32,538 bases of DNA from an uncultured Thermoplasmatales archaeon (GTDB taxonomy: Archaea; Thermoplasmatota; E2; DHVEG-1). The stretch covers positions 1 to 32,538 of the forward strand of contig CAZFAZ010000056.1 of assembly GCA_964517155.1 (NCBI GenBank), given 5' to 3'. Below, one piece after another: positions 3,760-25,936 of the stretch. The stretch's first letter is position 1. Each line of letters starts with the position of its first letter. The notes below the pieces were generated by a model, which was not told the origin of the DNA, did no database searches, and saw only the letters and a program-made list of their open reading frames with translations. The translations under genes were made by a program, and so were the position numbers.

Positions 3760-4875
3760 TTAGCGAACAAAATCAATATCTACTTTTGCTTTTGCAACCA
3801 TAGGTTTCATTGGTTGTCTTTCAAGCATTGGTGTGCTTTTTGGACCAAGTATATTTGGTGATTGTACACCAGTCATAATTGCCATTACACGGCATTTGCC
3901 TTCAAACTCGGGTAGTACACGTGCACCAAGTATGACATTTGAGTAGCAGTCTAAATCTTCAGTTAATGATTTTGCTACATCTTGTACATATCTTAGGCTC
4001 ATGTTTGGTCCACCGGTAATATGAACTAATGCTCCAGTTGCACCTTTATAATCAACATTTAACAATGGATGATTAAGTGCTTCTTTTACAATTGTTTCTA
4101 CACCTGAATCTTCTTCTGCTTCACCCCAAAGCATAATAGAAAGTCCGCCTTGATCCATAATTGATTTCATATCTGCGTAGTCAAGATTTATTAATGACGG
4201 TACGGTAATTGTTTCAGATATTCCTTTTACTGTTTCAGAAATCATTTGATCCATAACTGAGAATGCTTGGTTTATTGGCAGATTTGGTACAAACTCTAAT
4301 AGCCTATTGTTGTCTAATACAACGGTACTATCTGCTTTTGTTCTAAGTTTGTCAAGTCCTTCATCTGCTTTTATAAGACGAGCACGCTCAACATTAAAGG
4401 GAGTGGAGACCATACAAGTTACAACTGCATTGTGTTTTTTTGCAATTTCTGCTACAACTGGTGCAGAACCGGTTCCAGTTCCACCACCCATGCCTGCAGT
4501 AATAAACACTAAATCTGAATCTTTTACAAGCTCTTCAATTTCATGTATGCTTTCACGAGCTGCTCTTTCTCCAACATCGGGAAAACCGCCTGCTCCGAGT
4601 CCACGTGTTAAACGACCACCAATTAAAATCTTGTGATCTGCTTCAACAAGATTCAGAGCCATTTTATCTGTGTTTATAGCTATTGTTTTTGCTCCTGTCA
4701 CTCCAAGTTTGTTTAACCTGGTTATCGTGTTTCCGCCGGCGCCACCGCATCCAACTATTGTGATTCTTGGTGTGCCAAACATTTCAGCGTCATCAAAATT
4801 TAATTTTGTTTCTTCTTCTTTTTTATTATTAATTGCGCTGGCTATAAAAGCCTCCATATTATTTTTTTCTCCCAT
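3760..4875 (-). CDS. ftsZ: Cell division protein FtsZ (FtsZ2-type context)
   Basis: [13 protein letters not shown], tubulin signature GMGGGTGTG and T7 loop INLDYAD. SD AGGAGG at 4891-4886. Lies downstream of an RHH gene, as in the cdrS-ftsZ2 arrangement. Confidence 0.97.
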
Positions 4876-4899
4876 CTATTACATTCCTCCTAAATTTTT

Positions 4900-4970
4900 T
4901 TGCTGGTAGTTTGAAGGACGCCCATCCCCACAGGCGCCCTTCTGTTAGGGGTGCATCCCATCCCCTCCAA
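4900..4970 (-). promoter_or_regulatory. Structured GC-rich intercistronic leader of ftsZ; putative sRNA target
   Basis: 10-bp hairpin GAAGGGCGCC/GGCGUCCUUC (4942-4913), fully paired only on the minus strand via G-U. Two GGGGAUGGG copies. The flanks match the 20160-20196 element. Confidence 0.75.
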
Positions 4971-4980
4971 TTTTTAACCA

Positions 4981-5208
4981 TTATTTTTTCATGTAAGGTT
5001 CAATGGACTCAACTGCAAGTTCCAATTCTTGGACCTTTTTGATTTTCTCCGCCTTATCAATTAAACTTTGGGCGTAGTTTTTAATAAAATCATTTACTGC
5101 ATGACGAATAACTTCAGAACGAGTAGCAAACTCCCCAGCTCTAACAAAAAGATCGATAGAGTGTATATCGTGCTGGGATAGTCTGATTGTTATCCGTTGC
5201 GTATCCAT
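4981..5208 (-). CDS. cdrS: Ribbon-helix-helix regulator, CdrS-like
   Basis: RITIRL...GEFATRSEVIRHAV CopG/RHH pattern, immediately upstream of ftsZ as in haloarchaeal cdrS-ftsZ2. SD GTGAGGAG. Confidence 0.85.
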   Translation of the reverse strand: MDTQRITIRLSQHDIHSIDLFVRAGEFATRSEVIRHAVNDFIKNYAQSLIDKAEKIKKVQELELAVESIEPYMKK

Positions 5209-8598: not shown

Positions 8599-8724
8599 GT
8601 CGGGGTGGCTCAGCTTGGTTAGAGCGCCTGACTCATAAGCAAAGCTATAAAGGGTTCGAAAAAAGTATTTGCCTTTTGGCGCTAAGATATCAGGAGGTCG
8701 CGGGCTCAAATCCCGCCCCCGACA
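8599..8724 (+). tRNA. tRNA-Met (CAT), elongator type, with a 51-nt intron at 37/38 (8638-8688)
   Basis: Acceptor GTCGGGG/CCCCGAC, anticodon stem CCTGA/TCAGG with CTCATA|intron|A, T arm GCGGG-CTCAAAT-CCCGC. The intron is self-complementary with BHB-like junctions. Confidence 0.92.
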
Positions 8725-19734: not shown

Positions 19735-19872
19735 GTCAATATACGCCTCCCCTTAAGCTTTTTTGGGCAGTTCTGTAATCAACATACTGCATTTAATTGT
19801 TGTCATTTTTAAACATATATCTGTCGTTTTAAAGGGAATAATTTAAAAAGGATGATATATTACACCCCATTC

Positions 19873-20088
19873 ATGGCGCTTCCGTTAGATGTACTGGAAA
19901 AAGCAATGAATCAAAAACTTTCTTTATTGCTAAAAGATAGTAGAGTTATAGAAGGAAAATTAACTGGTTATGATGAATACATGAACATGGTTTTATCAGA
20001 TGTAGAAGAAACACTAGGTGAAACCAAACGTCGTCTTGGTACTGTTATTCTACGTGGAAATAATGTTGTAAGTATTTCTCTTTTATAA
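19873..20088 (+). CDS. Sm-like archaeal protein (Lsm/SmAP1)
   Basis: Sm1 GKLTGYDEYMNMVL and Sm2 ILRGNNVV. TTTAAAAA about 30 nt upstream supports a leaderless start at ATG 19873. Confidence 0.95.
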   Translation: MALPLDVLEKAMNQKLSLLLKDSRVIEGKLTGYDEYMNMVLSDVEETLGETKRRLGTVILRGNNVVSISLL

Positions 20089-20108: not shown

Positions 20109-20125
20109 GCGAAATGTATATATAT
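20109..20125 (+). promoter_or_regulatory. BRE-TATA promoter of candidate sRNA 1
   Basis: GCGAAAT-G-TATATATAT; canonical spacing predicts a start at about 20146-20148. Confidence 0.65.
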
Positions 20126-20147: not shown

Positions 20148-20223
20148 GGAAGGAATCGGGCTGGTAGTTTTTGTTAGAGTGCATCCCATCCCCTCCTAGT
20201 GAGGCCAGCCATCCTTCCTTTTT
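20148..20223 (+). ncRNA. Candidate trans-acting small RNA 1, antisense to the cdrS-ftsZ intercistronic leader
   Basis: GC-rich island with stems GGAAGGA/TCCTTCC and GGCTGG/CCAGCC, a small CCTC/GAGG hairpin and a 3' T-run. Blocks of 11, 6 and 18 nt are identical to the + strand of 4902-4968. Confidence 0.78.
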
Positions 20224-20282
20224 AACTATGTTATTTTAAAAAAGTTTTAAGTATAGTTTTATTATACATGCAACTGGTTTTT

Positions 20283-21932
20283 ATGGGGAGCAAAATAAAG
20301 GCTACAACAGGCATGAAACTTAGATGCAAAGGCTGGAAACAAGAAGCGATACTTCGCATGCTTGAAAACAATCTTGAAAATGCAGAAATTCCTGAAGAAT
20401 TAATTGTTTATGGTGGAACTGGTAAAGCTGCGCGAAATTGGGATTGCTACAAAAAGATAGTTGAGACACTTAAAAATCTTGAAAACGATGAGACTATGGT
20501 TATTCAATCAGGAAAACCTGTTGCTGTTTTTAAAACTTGGACAAACTCTCCTCGTGTTGTTATGGCTAACTCAAATATTGTCCCTCATTGGAGTTGTTGG
20601 GAGAAATTCTACGAGCTTGAAAGACTAGGACTTATTATGTATGCTCAGATGACTGCAGGTTCATGGTGTTATATAGGAACACAAGGGATAATACAAGGTA
20701 CATATGAAACATTTGCCGCTCTTGCGAAAAAACATTTTAAAAGTAATCTAAAAGGTAAGATAGTTTTGACTGGTGGTATTGGAGGTATGGGTGGTGCTCA
20801 ACCTCTGGCAGTTAAAATGGCAGGTGGCGTATGTATTGCAGTTGAATGTGAAGAAAGTCGCATTGATAGAAGAATTTCCGCAGGTTTTTGTGATAAAAAA
20901 ATAAAAGATGTTAATGAGGCTTTAGAGCTTGCCCAAAAAGCAAAAGCTGATGGAAAAGCACTTGCTATTGGGCTTCTTGGAAATTGTGCAGATATTTTGC
21001 CTTATTTAGTAAAAAAAGGTTTTAAACCAGATGTTGTAACAGATCAAACAAGTGCTCATGATGAGCTTAACGGTTATGTCCCTTCAGGTTTTTATGGTGA
21101 TAATTTAAAAGAAGCATTTGTTCTTAGGAAAAAAAATTCACAAGAATACATTAAAAAATCAATGCAAAGTATGAAAATTCATTGTAAATCAATGCTTGAT
21201 TTTAAGAAAAATGGCTCTGTTGTTTTTGACTATGGAAATAACCTGCGTGGTCAGGCGTTAAAGGCAGGTCTTTCTAATGCTTTTGATTACCCTGGTTTTG
21301 TACCAGCGTATGTTCGACCTATGCTTGCAGTAGGTCGCGGGCCTTTTAGATGGCTTGCACTTTCAGGGAATCCTGATGATATAATTAAAACTGATAAAGC
21401 AGTTCTTGAAATGTTTCCAAGGGATGATGTTTTATCTAATTGGATTAAACTTGCTGAAGAATTTTTACCTTGGGAGGGACTTCCTGCGCGTGTCTGTTGG
21501 CTTGGTTATGGTGAGCGTGACAGATTTGCTTTAAAAATTAATAAGATGGTTAAAAAAGGTGAGATTGGGCCTATTGCAATAACACGTGATCATCTTGATA
21601 GTGGAAGTGTTGCTTCCCCCTATCGTGAGACTGAAAGTATGAAGGATGGTAGTGACGTAATTGCTGATTGGCCACTGCTTAATGCTCTTTTAAATTGTGC
21701 CGCTGGTGCAGATAGCGTGCAAATTCATAATGGTGGTGGGGTAGGAATTGGTCTTTCTACTCATGCCGGCATGGTTGTTGTATGTGATGGAACTAGTGAA
21801 ACAGATGAAAGAATAAAACGTGTTTTTAAAACAGACCCGGGTATAGGTGTAGTACGTCATGCTGATGCAGGATACATTGAAGCATTAAATGTTGTGAAGA
21901 AAACAGATTTGAAACTTCCGATGATAAAATAA
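20283..21932 (+). CDS. hutU: Urocanate hydratase
   Basis: LIVYGGTGKAARNW, QMTAGSWCYIGTQGIIQGTYET, TDQTSAHD, RDHLDSGSVASPYRETE and HNGGGVG motifs. ATG 20268 is an alternative start. Confidence 0.97.
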   Translation: MGSKIKATTGMKLRCKGWKQEAILRMLENNLENAEIPEELIVYGGTGKAARNWDCYKKIVETLKNLENDETMVIQSGKPVAVFKTWTNSPRVVMANSNIVPHWSCWEKFYELERLGLIMYAQMTAGSWCYIGTQGIIQGTYETFAALAKKHFKSNLKGKIVLTGGIGGMGGAQPLAVKMAGGVCIAVECEESRIDRRISAGFCDKKIKDVNEALELAQKAKADGKALAIGLLGNCADILPYLVKKGFKPDVVTDQTSAHDELNGYVPSGFYGDNLKEAFVLRKKNSQEYIKKSMQSMKIHCKSMLDFKKNGSVVFDYGNNLRGQALKAGLSNAFDYPGFVPAYVRPMLAVGRGPFRWLALSGNPDDIIKTDKAVLEMFPRDDVLSNWIKLAEEFLPWEGLPARVCWLGYGERDRFALKINKMVKKGEIGPIAITRDHLDSGSVASPYRETESMKDGSDVIADWPLLNALLNCAAGADSVQIHNGGGVGIGLSTHAGMVVVCDGTSETDERIKRVFKTDPGIGVVRHADAGYIEALNVVKKTDLKLPMIK

Positions 21933-21938
21933 GTATAT

Positions 21939-23462
21939 TTATTCCAGTTTTCCAACTGTTTTTTCAACTTCAGAAAGTATTTCACAAGATTTAACAAGTT
22001 CTTTCATTTTTGTATGATCCGTATAAAGCGGTCTATCTACATCAAGGAATTTTACATGTTTACGAATTACGTCTTTTGCCTTTGTAACACCTTTACCAAA
22101 TTTGTAATCACGAAAATCAAGTGCCTGTGCTGCTGCCATAAGTTCTATACCAAGAATGCCATAGGCATTATCTATGATTTGGAAGTTTTTAATAGCTGTA
22201 TTCATAGCCATTGAGACAAAATCTTCTTGATCTGCTGCTGCAGGTATACTTTGTATAGATGCAGGATTTGAAAGTATTTTTTGTTCAACAATTAAATGAT
22301 CTGCTGTGTATTGAGAAAGCATAAGGCCTGAAAACATACCAGCGCCTTTAGTAAGAAATGCTGGAAGTCCAACACTTAGTGCAGGGTTATTTAACCTATT
22401 CATGCGTCTTTCACTTAAAATACATACCATAGTAATTGCAGTTCCTGCCATATCCATTGGTAGGCCCATGGGAGAGCCTTGGAAATTTGCACCTGAGAGT
22501 TGTAAATCTTCATCTGGGAAAAAAACTGGATTGTCTCCAACTCCATTAAGCTCGATTTCAATTTGTTCTTTTGCCCAGCGAAGTGCGTCATGAGCAGCAC
22601 CTATTACTTGTGGTGTTGAGCGCATTGAATATGCATCTTGTACTTTGCATTTCATTTTGCCGTTCTGAAGATCTCCATCTTTTACTAGTTTGCAGATTGC
22701 TTTTGCACTGCGGATAGCACCAGAAAATCCACGTGCTTCATGTAGTTTTGGAGTATATGGTTTCATATTTGCTTTGAGTGCTTCAAGGCTCATTGCTGCT
22801 GCTATTTCTGCTTGTTTTAAAAAATTATTAGCATCATGTAAAAAAATTGCACTCATTGCAGTAAGAAAGTTACAGCCGTTAATTATTGAAAGCCCGTCTC
22901 TTGCTTCAAGACCAGGAATTTTTATTCCTGTTTTTTTCATGGCGTCTTTGCCTTCGTAGAGTTTTCCTTTATAGTATGCTTTTCCTTCTCCAAGCATTAA
23001 AAGAGCAATTTGTGACATTGGTGCAAGGTCTCCACATGCACCAACACTTCCTTTTTGACAAACATATGGTGTTACACCTTTGTTTAGCATTTCAACAAGG
23101 GTTTGTGTAATTTGGGATCTGCAAGCACTTTGTCCATGAGCATGAACATTAACACGGGCAAGCATAGCACCACGAACATATTCTATTGGTGCAGGATCAC
23201 CTATTCCTGCTGCATGGTTATAAACTAAATATTTCTGGAATTGTTTTATTTTATCTTGTGTTAATACTACTTCTGAAAATTCACCAATTCCTGTATTTAC
23301 TCCATACATTATTTCTTTGGTTTTTATTTTTTTTTCAAGAACATCTCTGCATTTTTTTATGCGTTTTAGTGCATCAGGATGCAGTTTTATTTTTTCGTTA
23401 TGTCTTGCAACCTGTACTACTTTTTCAACTGTAAGATTTGAACCATCAATAACAATTGTCAT
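21939..23462 (-). CDS. hutH: Histidine ammonia-lyase (aromatic amino acid lyase family)
   Basis: YGVNTGIG, GSVGACGDLAP, VQDAYSMR, GANFQG and QEDFVSM motifs; adjacent to hutU. Confidence 0.9.
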   Translation of the reverse strand: MTIVIDGSNLTVEKVVQVARHNEKIKLHPDALKRIKKCRDVLEKKIKTKEIMYGVNTGIGEFSEVVLTQDKIKQFQKYLVYNHAAGIGDPAPIEYVRGAMLARVNVHAHGQSACRSQITQTLVEMLNKGVTPYVCQKGSVGACGDLAPMSQIALLMLGEGKAYYKGKLYEGKDAMKKTGIKIPGLEARDGLSIINGCNFLTAMSAIFLHDANNFLKQAEIAAAMSLEALKANMKPYTPKLHEARGFSGAIRSAKAICKLVKDGDLQNGKMKCKVQDAYSMRSTPQVIGAAHDALRWAKEQIEIELNGVGDNPVFFPDEDLQLSGANFQGSPMGLPMDMAGTAITMVCILSERRMNRLNNPALSVGLPAFLTKGAGMFSGLMLSQYTADHLIVEQKILSNPASIQSIPAAADQEDFVSMAMNTAIKNFQIIDNAYGILGIELMAAAQALDFRDYKFGKGVTKAKDVIRKHVKFLDVDRPLYTDHTKMKELVKSCEILSEVEKTVGKLE

Positions 23463-25846: not shown

Positions 25847-25857
25847 TTTTCTTTAAT

Positions 25858-25930
25858 AGTCCCGTAATGTAGCGGTCAATCATCCGGGATTCTGGATCCC
25901 GGTACCCCAGTTCGAATCTGGGCGGGACTA
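25858..25930 (+). tRNA. tRNA-Gln (CTG)
   Basis: Acceptor AGTCCCG/CGGGACT with A1-U72 typical of archaeal tRNA-Gln. Anticodon arm CGGGA-TTCTGGA-TCCCG, T arm CCCAG-TTCGAAT-CTGGG. Confidence 0.96.
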
Positions 25931-25936
25931 TTATTT

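Follow-up and report, generated by a model that had tools for sequence, protein, structure and literature searches.

The 32,538-nucleotide (nt) contig analysed here, hereafter the window (CAZFAZ010000056.1 of GenBank assembly GCA_964517155.1, from an uncultured Thermoplasmatales archaeon), carries on its minus strand the cell division gene ftsZ, directly preceded by a gene for a ribbon-helix-helix protein, and on its plus strand, 15 kb away, a short element between an Lsm (Sm-like) gene and the urocanase gene hutU (Table 1). We refer to the ribbon-helix-helix gene as cdrS, a name that rests on the fold and on the position before ftsZ, as described for haloarchaea (PMC7439475, PMC8406309). An initial annotation, made from the letters of the window, had proposed that the element is an independent plus-strand gene for a trans-acting small RNA (sRNA) with closing stems, antisense to the cdrS-ftsZ leader and pairing with it across a hairpin; a 17-codon open reading frame (ORF) and a hutU leader were its alternatives, and a dispersed repeat was what would have spoken against it. 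The comparative analysis described below upholds this proposal in its main points and leaves little room for the alternatives. Beyond it, we find that the RNA family is phylum-wide, that its seed also matches motility genes and that one of the three pairing blocks is confined to the genus level. Overall, positions 20148-20218 (+) probably encode a 71-76-nt trans-acting antisense sRNA that belongs to a Thermoplasmatota-wide family and targets the cdrS-ftsZ leader. Genomes, contigs, loci and families are cited, where needed, by our handles (G, C, L and f, respectively); the genome of the window is G000.

Table 1. Positions of the features discussed, with strand and basis of each assignment
Feature	Position	Strand	Basis
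Lsm (Sm-like) gene, directly upstream of the sRNA gene	19852..20088	+	Pfam LSM, 1.6e-22
sRNA promoter: transcription factor B recognition element (BRE, CGAAA) and TATA box (TATATATA)	20110..20124	+	sequence; position kept in family
Predicted sRNA gene body, 71 nt	20148..20218	+	covariance model R1, score 100.7 bits
Stem 1, 5' strand GGAAGGA, pairs with 20212-20218	20148..20154	+	covariation
Stem 2, 5' strand GGCUGG, pairs with 20205-20210; CUGG also lies within pairing block 1	20159..20164	+	covariation
U-rich single-stranded linker of variable length; candidate Sm/Lsm binding tract	20165..20178	+	alignments
Invariant C-rich loop (seed), 18-mer GUGCAUCCCAUCCCCUCC	20179..20196	+	alignments; predicted unpaired
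3' strands of stem 2 (CCAGCC) and stem 1 (UCCUUCC)	20205..20218	+	covariation
U-run terminator	20219..20223	+	sequence; T-run kept in family
Block 1, GCTGGTAGTTT (RNA GCUGGUAGUUU)	20160-20170 = 4902-4912	+	antisense to leader 4902-4912
Block 2, TGTTAG	20172-20177 = 4943-4948	+	sequence identity
Block 3, GTGCATCCCATCCCCTCC	20179-20196 = 4951-4968	+	sequence identity
Urocanase gene hutU	20268..21932	+	Pfam
cdrS-like ribbon-helix-helix gene, directly upstream of ftsZ	4981..5208	-	Pfam RHH_8, 6.2e-07; RHH_1, 1.6e-05
18-nt stretch perfectly complementary to the sRNA loop	4951..4968	-	sequence
Leader hairpin P1, GGGG-AUGGGAUGCA-CCCC; loop and 5' strand are the main target of the sRNA loop	4948..4965	-	alignment
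Leader hairpin P2 (GAAGGGCGCC...GGCGUCCUUC), looped out between the pairing blocks	4913..4942	-	11 pairs
Leader block AAACUACCAGC, complementary to sRNA 20160-20170	4902..4912	-	ACUACCA invariant in 24/24 aligned leaders
ftsZ Shine-Dalgarno GGAGG (UAGGAGGAAUG context), 11 nt downstream of the pairing site	4886..4890	-	sequence
ftsZ	3760..4875	-	Pfam Tubulin/FtsZ GTPase, 1.4e-41; FtsZ_C, 2e-25

The candidate small-RNA gene and its fold

Across 30 aligned loci from the window's family the flanks of the element have diverged freely, and only the BRE/TATA, the RNA body and the T-run are constant. In each of the 28 loci with at least 40 nt of upstream sequence, 22-23 nt separate the end of the BRE/TATA from the first G of GGAAGG, at least three T follow the stem in 28/30 loci, and the body itself is 90-100% identical in 36/36 genomes of the family, whereas the Lsm and urocanase proteins encoded on either side are only 65-87% identical among the loci. 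That the body is kept while its flanks and the neighbouring proteins diverge points to selection on the nucleotide sequence of an independently transcribed plus-strand RNA. Signals of a separate transcription unit, namely a promoter and a terminator, are present as signals alone; judged by them, 20148-20218 (+) is a small-RNA gene with independent promoter and terminator, and we infer that it is transcribed. Among metatranscriptome contigs (Logan), 13 entries recorded as RNA contain part of the stretch; such contigs show neither strand, ends nor level.

The window genome holds a second full copy of the sRNA, 87% identical to the first (contig C32:25309-25379). A weak third locus (C88:5050-5117, +; model R1, E 0.17) has a different closing stem (AGUCUGGA/UCCAGACU) around GCGCAUCCCAUCCCAUUCC and may be a diverged paralogue.

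These copies, and the place of the gene in front of hutU in the window's family, could be taken to indicate a dispersed repeat resembling a miniature inverted-repeat transposable element (MITE), or a cis-acting leader of hutU. Two strong copies and one weak copy in the window genome, in conserved synteny, are not what a dispersed element would leave, however, and the element has its own promoter and terminator, after which a further conserved promoter-like box (AAAAAAGTTTTAAGTATAG) stands before hutU, within 20225-20267 (+), in most loci of the family. Since the other copies and the copies in other lineages lie beside unrelated genes, we regard the chance that either explanation holds as negligible. 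The same low expectation applies to a small protein gene. Two frames are indeed open in the window, a 17-codon plus-strand ORF and a minus-strand ORF beginning MGCT, and the three genome copies differ by indels of 3 or 30 nt; yet the plus-strand start is not conserved (GCG in 3/28 loci, ATA in the second copy), the linker measures 8-26 nt and falls into every class modulo 3, and indels in the ftsZ leader are not multiples of three. Moreover, nucleotide identity near 100% without synonymous drift is the pattern of an RNA, which makes coding exceedingly improbable.

The fold of the sRNA is described by a covariance model with two helices, built from 26 sequences, to which 54 sRNAs were then aligned. 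In this alignment 96.1% of stem cells are standard pairs, compared to 87.3 +/- 0.5 in shuffles, the covariation score is 0.306 vs 0.144, none of 500 shuffles attains any of the measures, and sliding the partner by 1-3 columns as a control lowers pairing to 32-63%; it must be held against these counts that they come from an alignment fitted to the model, which favours structure. Among 53 distinct sequences, all seven pairs of stem 1 have changed on both sides (95.1% of cells paired), as have four of the six pairs of stem 2 (97.3% paired), giving 11 of 13 pairs and bearing out the closing stems of the earlier proposal. With 32 G.U cells against 13 A.C cells, the stems also agree with the plus strand. 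The lineages differ in the stems and keep the loop letter for letter: GGAAGGA/UCCUUCC in the window's family corresponds to GAACAGGG/CCCUGUUC in Poseidoniales and to GGGAAGGAUAGGC/GCCUAUCCUCCC in another group, with G+C-rich versions elsewhere. The size of the effect and the wholly different stem sequences between lineages thus speak for a real predicted structure despite the model-fitted alignment.

Between stem 2 and the loop lies the U/G-rich linker, whose 8-26 nt across lineages are counted as the distance from CUGG to GCAUCC. At least 90% of the 53 sRNAs have A directly before GUGCAUCC, and at least 70% have G one position earlier. With A rather than GG at this point the sRNA is unable to form the complement of leader hairpin P1, and its loop is therefore predicted to stay open, which is the role that had been suggested for the GG-to-A difference. 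Reading of the 54 aligned sRNAs for C/D or H/ACA boxes yielded none, and no Rfam snoRNA family matched the sRNA loci. Neither ARAGORN nor the Rfam tRNA model places a tRNA at 20148-20218, though both find others in the window. On those others the two finders disagree: a 126-nt tRNA at 8599-8724 (+) called by Rfam, probably intron-bearing, is missed by ARAGORN, and a tRNA-Gln at 25857-25931 (+) called by ARAGORN is not reported by the Rfam scan at gathering score.

The model matches 118 of 151 genomes sampled across Thermoplasmatota, including 81 of the 102 of high quality, and 59/61 genomes of a class-wide sample. The exact 18-mer of the loop is found in at least 118 public contig stretches; among the 80 matches listed, all but two are titled Thermoplasmatota, its synonyms or Poseidoniales, and the other two bacteria. 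Complete genomes of family f11 carry the sRNA with a variant loop, GUGCAUCCCAUCCCUUCUGAC. No Rfam family reaches gathering score at 20148-20218 and none is found at E <=1 in four sRNA loci, in line with the initial remark that no described family was recognised; the leader gives a chance-level match only, to a viral frameshift element (E 0.22). A literature search with the loop motif, in either alphabet and on either strand, did not find it, and no RNA regulator of archaeal division was found in the literature searched. The abundant Marine Group II non-coding RNA Tan1 was considered and set aside, its description giving a length of 229 nt and hence a different RNA (PMC5069720); the motif is absent from one supplementary text file of that paper. 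By these searches the sRNA represents a new family within a known class of regulators. Its unusual features are the phylum-wide range and, as predicted, the ftsZ leader as target, pairing that would invade its own stem arm, and target sites that would form junctions.

Complementarity to the cdrS-ftsZ leader

Three colinear blocks, identical on the plus strand, occur in the same order at the sRNA gene and in the cdrS-ftsZ gap 15 kb away, and their coordinates are exactly those first given. A single T at 20171 replaces the 30 nt of the leader at 4913-4942, and an A at 20178 replaces the GG at 4949-4950. What the initial annotation had not noticed is that block 2 (TGTTAG) varies within the family; it is not a conserved block but a genus-level extension that only lengthens the duplex there.

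A seeded duplex scan of the whole assembly (1.59 Mb, 32% G+C) ranked the ftsZ leader, at -41.3 kcal/mol, as the best site after the antisense strands of the two sRNA genes themselves, while the best sites for one reversed and six shuffled control queries lay between -25 and -34.5. Likewise, RNAcofold of sRNA and leader gave a net energy of -30.6 kcal/mol, compared to -9.1 +/- 3.6 (minimum -20.2) for 100 shuffled sRNAs and -0.6 +/- 1.5 for 150 random genome windows. The match between sRNA and leader is beyond chance.

To describe the leader, we aligned those of 30 relatives in the mRNA sense and re-aligned 24 for folding, leaving out L046, L054, L055, L057, L058 and L059. The gap begins with the cdrS stop codon, followed by a short variable stretch, P1 and then P2 (GAAGGRCGCC...GGCGYCCUUC around a variable loop); after P2 come an invariant (C)AACUACCAG, 3-25 variable nt, UAGGAGGAAUG and the ftsZ start codon. 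The P1 loop is invariant in all 24 aligned leaders and its outer pair turns from G-C to A-U in two sequences. In P2, one pair alternates between GU (10), AU (8) and GC (6), and two further pairs are UG in 4 and 13 sequences. The insert that had been read as a hairpin does fold, as P2, with 11 pairs that are perfect in the mRNA sense only, since a G.U pair of the message becomes A.C on the plus strand; P2 would thus fold in the message and not on the plus strand. As judged from the alignment, the leader is itself a structured RNA whose invariant parts coincide exactly with the stretches complementary to the sRNA. The possibility that it contains a conserved upstream ORF (MHP-stop or MGCT...) was also considered and was rejected because the frames differ between relatives.

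According to RNAcofold, nt 13-49 of the sRNA pair on both sides of P2 while P2 stays folded, which amounts to the three-way junction proposed at the outset. The arrangement recurs in 20/20 genomes of the window's family, where the two colinear blocks are separated by 32-44 nt of leader but by only 7-15 nt of sRNA; pairing of the block 1 type, 10-12 nt long, is found in all 20 as well. A similar two-block layout is seen in G037 (f2) and G058 (f9). In f6, 26-60 nt of sequence are inserted between colinear blocks of at least 7 nt, of which G211, G222 and G228 have three each and G215 and G231 two; in f4 and f10 the site is contiguous. Hairpins inserted between pairing blocks are, on this comparison, apparently a recurrent design and not an accident of the window.

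Two further matches to the same loop were observed in leaders. In many close relatives a second GGGGAUGGG, lying at window positions 4921-4933 (-) in the loop and 3' strand of P2, adds a 9-nt match that is gone in more distant members of the family. In f4 and G068 (loci L389, L381, L390 and L219) the ftsZ Shine-Dalgarno is an extended GGAGGGGAU, complementary to nine loop nt, and the leaders there thus offer two sites to one seed.

The deciding test, whether the complementarity co-varies, was made on the class-wide sample of 61 genomes. A search with the 75-amino-acid CdrS protein returned a homologue in only one of five distant genomes, and FtsZ was therefore used as the anchor; FtsZ orthologues were found in 57 genomes, the sRNA in 59 and both in 54. 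When each genome's own sRNA was compared with up to 200 nt before ftsZ, taking the longest exact complementary match as the measure, 52/54 genomes had at least 13 nt of perfect complementarity. The same-sense control gave at most 9 nt, and forty shuffles per genome gave at most 12, with a mean of about 6.8. In f1 and f6 it is the invariant loop that gives the longest block, and this would match any sRNA. For f10 (7/7) and f4 (11/11) the leader match is longer with sRNAs of the genome's own family than with those of any other family. Changes in the linker are mirrored in the partner: the ...GGCUGGUUGCAAAGGCAUCCC... of G059 has its counterpart ...GGGAUGCCUUUGCAACCAGCC... in the leader, making 33 contiguous nt; the linkers UAGUAUAGC of G164 and UAGCAGGC of G221 are mirrored over 30 and 21 nt, respectively; f10 genomes set GGAUAGGCUGGUAGUUGUUA against leader UAACAACUACCAGCCUAUCC; a change from AUAGGC to UUUGGC in the sRNA of G070 is accompanied by GCCUAU to GCCAAA in its leader; and in G068 the linker is missing from both partners, leaving 26 contiguous nt.

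An 8 x 8 cofold matrix placed the cognate sRNA first in four of eight leader columns (G000, G063, G064 and G068), and in the other four the best sRNA shares the 5' arm and the linker (G065, G066 or G067). A chain score of 6-nt blocks failed to separate own from foreign sRNAs, and the control for it was faulty. Overall, the complementarity between sRNA and leader is, to judge from these genomes, both conserved and co-varying across families, as expected of the antisense relation first suggested.

Two explanations without RNA-RNA pairing have to be considered in the light of this pattern. The leader segment could have arisen as an inverted duplicate of the sRNA gene that is now decaying, or could owe its likeness to gene conversion; that the complementarity takes in part of an sRNA stem arm is what a plain inverted copy would give. 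Such a copy would not be expected, however, to stay in the same place between cdrS and ftsZ in 52/54 genomes of several families while the gap around it diverges, to carry covarying hairpins of its own in the mRNA sense, or to show indels mirrored in both partners. Furthermore, only the 5' arm and the loop are retained and never the 3' arm, apart from a short GCCUCAC block in five f6 genomes, and we consider a duplicate without RNA-RNA function quite improbable. Alternatively, the shared sequence might be a double-stranded DNA site for a protein such as CdrS, given that a DNA site is indifferent to the direction of the gene and that CdrS-type proteins are described as binding DNA (PMC7439475). 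Lineage-specific identity over at least 30 bp, linker indels included, far exceeds the need of a ribbon-helix-helix operator, though, and conservation falls on the unpaired loop of a structured RNA; the motif also lies downstream of promoters, within 5' leaders and on start codons, so that a DNA site is highly improbable.

Seed matches elsewhere and the Lsm neighbour

The seed of the sRNA is not confined to the leader. The motif GATGGGATGCA occurs ten times in the window genome, where about 0.24 occurrences would be expected by arithmetic from base composition; two sites are the sRNA genes, one is the ftsZ leader, and the rest lie at translation starts. These include two genes for EarA-like winged-helix proteins (PF07381, 2.7e-26 and 5.8e-27), whose start codon is formed by the second AUG within the motif, an archaellin gene (PF01917, 7.3e-20) with the motif 3 nt before its AUG, a secreted repeat protein and an insertion sequence (IS) transposase (C10:29701), with another copy, at C28:23, running off the start of its contig. 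A near-variant with GCG for GCA stands at the start of a second transposase-like ORF (C86:5367). The 12-nt seed UGCAUCCCAUCC thus lies over the EarA-like start codons and just before the archaellin gene. In Methanococcus and Pyrococcus, EarA is described as activating the archaellum operon (PMC5512572, PMC10665913).

The motif overlaps the EarA-like start codon in 22/29 loci from two families, with the non-coding GGAUGGG before the AUG kept. Four of 30 archaellin loci (G000, G012, G024 and G003) have it just upstream of or across the archaellin start, three others have it in the neighbouring EarA-like gene, and 23 lack it. Across all 41 genomes of the family the pattern GGATGGGATGCA is found 242 times, and the same pattern read backwards, as a control, not once. 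Net cofold energies reached -18.2 for the EarA-like gene on C5 and -17.5 for an IS transposase (random windows, -0.4 +/- 1.2); a point against extending the pairing to these genes is that the values for EarA on C51 (-3.0), the archaellin gene (-3.9) and the IS element on C10 (0.0) are weak. We therefore treat a wider seed regulon as a secondary hypothesis with about equal chances of being right or wrong.

EarA-like regulators (PF07381) give one to four matches per genome in 24 family genomes searched (in G000, C5:2339-2665 and C51:16982-17311; other loci, L283-L312). A conserved BRE/TATA (CGATTAATTTATAAATA) stands about 30 nt before GGAUGGGAUGCA at each such gene, and the leaders of their mRNAs are thus likely to be very short; an archaellin gene cluster (C5:4872-7391) lies downstream of one copy. 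The start codons carrying the motif in multi-copy IS transposases comprise the three G000 sites named above and six contig ends in G065 (L189, L194, L198, L200, L202 and L203), with N-termini in the set of MQNMFF..., MGCAKK... and MGCKKQ...; the sRNA might restrain translation of these transposases. In G063, locus L197 has CUGGCCUCACGCCAGGGAUGGGAUGCAUUCGGG upstream of another gene, which resembles an antisense remnant of the 3' half and loop of the sRNA.

The neighbourhood of the sRNA gene is itself conserved in part. Lsm, sRNA and hutU follow one another in the same order and direction in all 27 loci of a first set that reach far enough (three of 30 are cut off) and in 18/19 of a second set, the remaining one, L411, having Lsm and sRNA and ending before hutU. 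One f2 genome, one f9 genome and G064 likewise have Lsm in front of the sRNA, unlike the nine f6, two f10, three Poseidoniales and five f11 loci examined. In Poseidoniales/Marine Group II (L186, L191 and L185) the sRNA is located between a methionine-aminopeptidase-like gene and a gene with a pilin-like N-terminus (...AVSPVIATILMVAITVVLAGVLYVWA...), a context that is different and also looks conserved. Within the window, hutU is followed by a convergent gene of the histidine ammonia-lyase type at 21939-23462 (-). A U-rich linker combined with a 3' U-run is the kind of sequence that an Sm-like protein is expected to bind. Both are present in the sRNA, the former as the single-stranded tract at 20165-20178, and Lsm is adjacent in f1, f2, f9 and G064; the Lsm protein may act as a chaperone of the sRNA.

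Proposed mechanism and place among known regulators

Our interpretation is that a two-part stem, drifting between lineages and covarying, would hold open a large loop made up of the U-rich linker and the invariant C-rich 18-mer. First contact in the cell would be a kissing contact between the sRNA loop and the P1 loop, from which pairing would spread outwards and to the second block (AAACUACCAGC) beyond P2. With P2 remaining folded, the outcome would be a three-way junction of about 35 bp that ends 11 nt before the ribosome-binding site of ftsZ. The most likely consequence would be less ribosome loading or re-initiation at ftsZ, or cleavage within the gap, and the output of FtsZ would thereby be set apart from that of CdrS. 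Through the shared seed, one RNA may co-regulate division and motility. Because the leader alone has no convincing structure over the Shine-Dalgarno, repression or processing appears somewhat more plausible to us than activation of ftsZ.

Several observations weigh against this interpretation. In the window genome the pairing site lies outside the ftsZ Shine-Dalgarno, and the leader alone has no strong structure over it, only a 4-bp invariant helix being predicted; with the Shine-Dalgarno neither covered nor strongly structured, the regulation could have either sign. Pairing of block 1 requires stem 2 of the sRNA to open. The two genomes below 13 nt, G037 and G058, have matches of 10 nt (plus a one-base bulge) and 9 nt only, and related genomes are not independent samples. 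Among the four metatranscriptome contig sets examined, one contig ends exactly at 20148, which is no proof of transcription, and a contig of run X9 spans the promoter region too and hence possibly derives from DNA or read-through. Two Poseidoniales genomes have only an 8-nt match, GGAUGGGA at the ftsZ start codon. In f11 the sRNA is present, but a strict search for FtsZ found nothing and a lax one only weak FtsZ-like genes (35% identity, partial); no clear target of the sRNA emerged there, the near-matches to the motif falling mostly within coding sequence. As f11 and Poseidoniales lack a clear leader site, ftsZ cannot be the sole or universal target of the RNA, which must have other or older ones.

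This raises the question of whether the roles could be reversed, with an abundant cdrS-ftsZ leader serving as a sponge that titrates the sRNA away from its real targets, be they EarA-like, archaellin or transposase genes or G-rich ribosome-binding sites. The sRNA is indeed present where no ftsZ-leader site was found (f11, Poseidoniales), other translation starts are enriched in its seed motif, the site in the leader does not include the ribosome-binding site, and in f4 and G068 the Shine-Dalgarno GGAGGGGAU is itself a second match to the loop. On the other hand, the leader site always lies just before ftsZ, and in the f4 and f10 leaders inspected it is 5-12 nt away from the Shine-Dalgarno; this position suits an effect on ftsZ. 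Both roles require the same pairing and the data therefore do not separate them; we nevertheless regard titration as unlikely, and control of ftsZ by the sRNA as the better account.

Control of ftsZ by an sRNA has a bacterial precedent in DicF of Escherichia coli, which, assisted by Hfq, pairs at the ribosome-binding site. DicF, too, is a trans-encoded sRNA antisense to the 5' untranslated part of ftsZ (RF00039; PMC5069750), and the present RNA would be its archaeal functional counterpart. In contrast to DicF, which is bacterial, prophage-borne and narrow in range, the present RNA appears as a core gene of a phylum, and it would pair upstream of the ribosome-binding site, in the intercistronic gap, and bridge a hairpin; at neither site is there sequence or model similarity to DicF. 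The principle of a stem presenting a C-rich loop is also that of RsaE/RoxS, sRNAs of Gram-positive bacteria. We know of no counterpart, among C-rich-loop sRNAs, to a co-varying match of at least 30 nt to one leader. In the widely conserved 6C RNA of Gram-positive bacteria, similarly, a stable stem is described as showing unpaired C-rich loops for G-rich, Shine-Dalgarno-like mRNA (PMC6486639). The present RNA differs from 6C and RsaE/RoxS in belonging to another domain of life, in giving no model match and in having one long loop instead of several short ones.

Intercistronic pairing that shifts the output of downstream versus upstream genes is established for Spot 42 on galETKM and RyhB on iscRSUA. 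The link between cdrS and ftsZ as an operon is taken here from gene order and from haloarchaeal work (PMC7439475). Spot 42 and RyhB, for their part, are bacterial and Hfq-dependent. Trans-acting sRNAs that act by base-pairing, some of them tied to Sm-like proteins, are known in archaea from Methanosarcina, Haloferax and Sulfolobus, at the level of species or genus. To our knowledge, those with proven targets are few and of narrow range, none has a phylum-wide distribution, an ftsZ target or this sequence, and little is known of how archaea control their FtsZ levels apart from the role of the transcription factor CdrS. SHOxi is a described example of a trans-acting sRNA in archaea (PMC8583180).

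On comparative evidence, the RNA described here is a strong candidate for a regulator of cell division in archaea, and would be the first widely conserved RNA with that role. A bolder and more tentative view, which we put forward as possible, is that it may be a core riboregulator of an archaeal phylum, often encoded beside an Lsm gene and tying division to motility and perhaps to transposases; it would then represent the first deeply conserved trans-acting sRNA regulon of archaea, and the first case of archaeal FtsZ under RNA control, with multi-way junctions as a feature of its design. The pair of sRNA and target is supported by compensatory mutations that arose naturally across dozens of genomes, a kind of evidence that is usually made at the bench. 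It offers a testable link between division and motility and a possible natural substrate for an archaeal Sm-like protein, and the sRNA may also serve as a marker RNA for abundant uncultured archaea of sediments and the sea, including lineages like Marine Benthic Group D (MBG-D) and the Poseidoniales.

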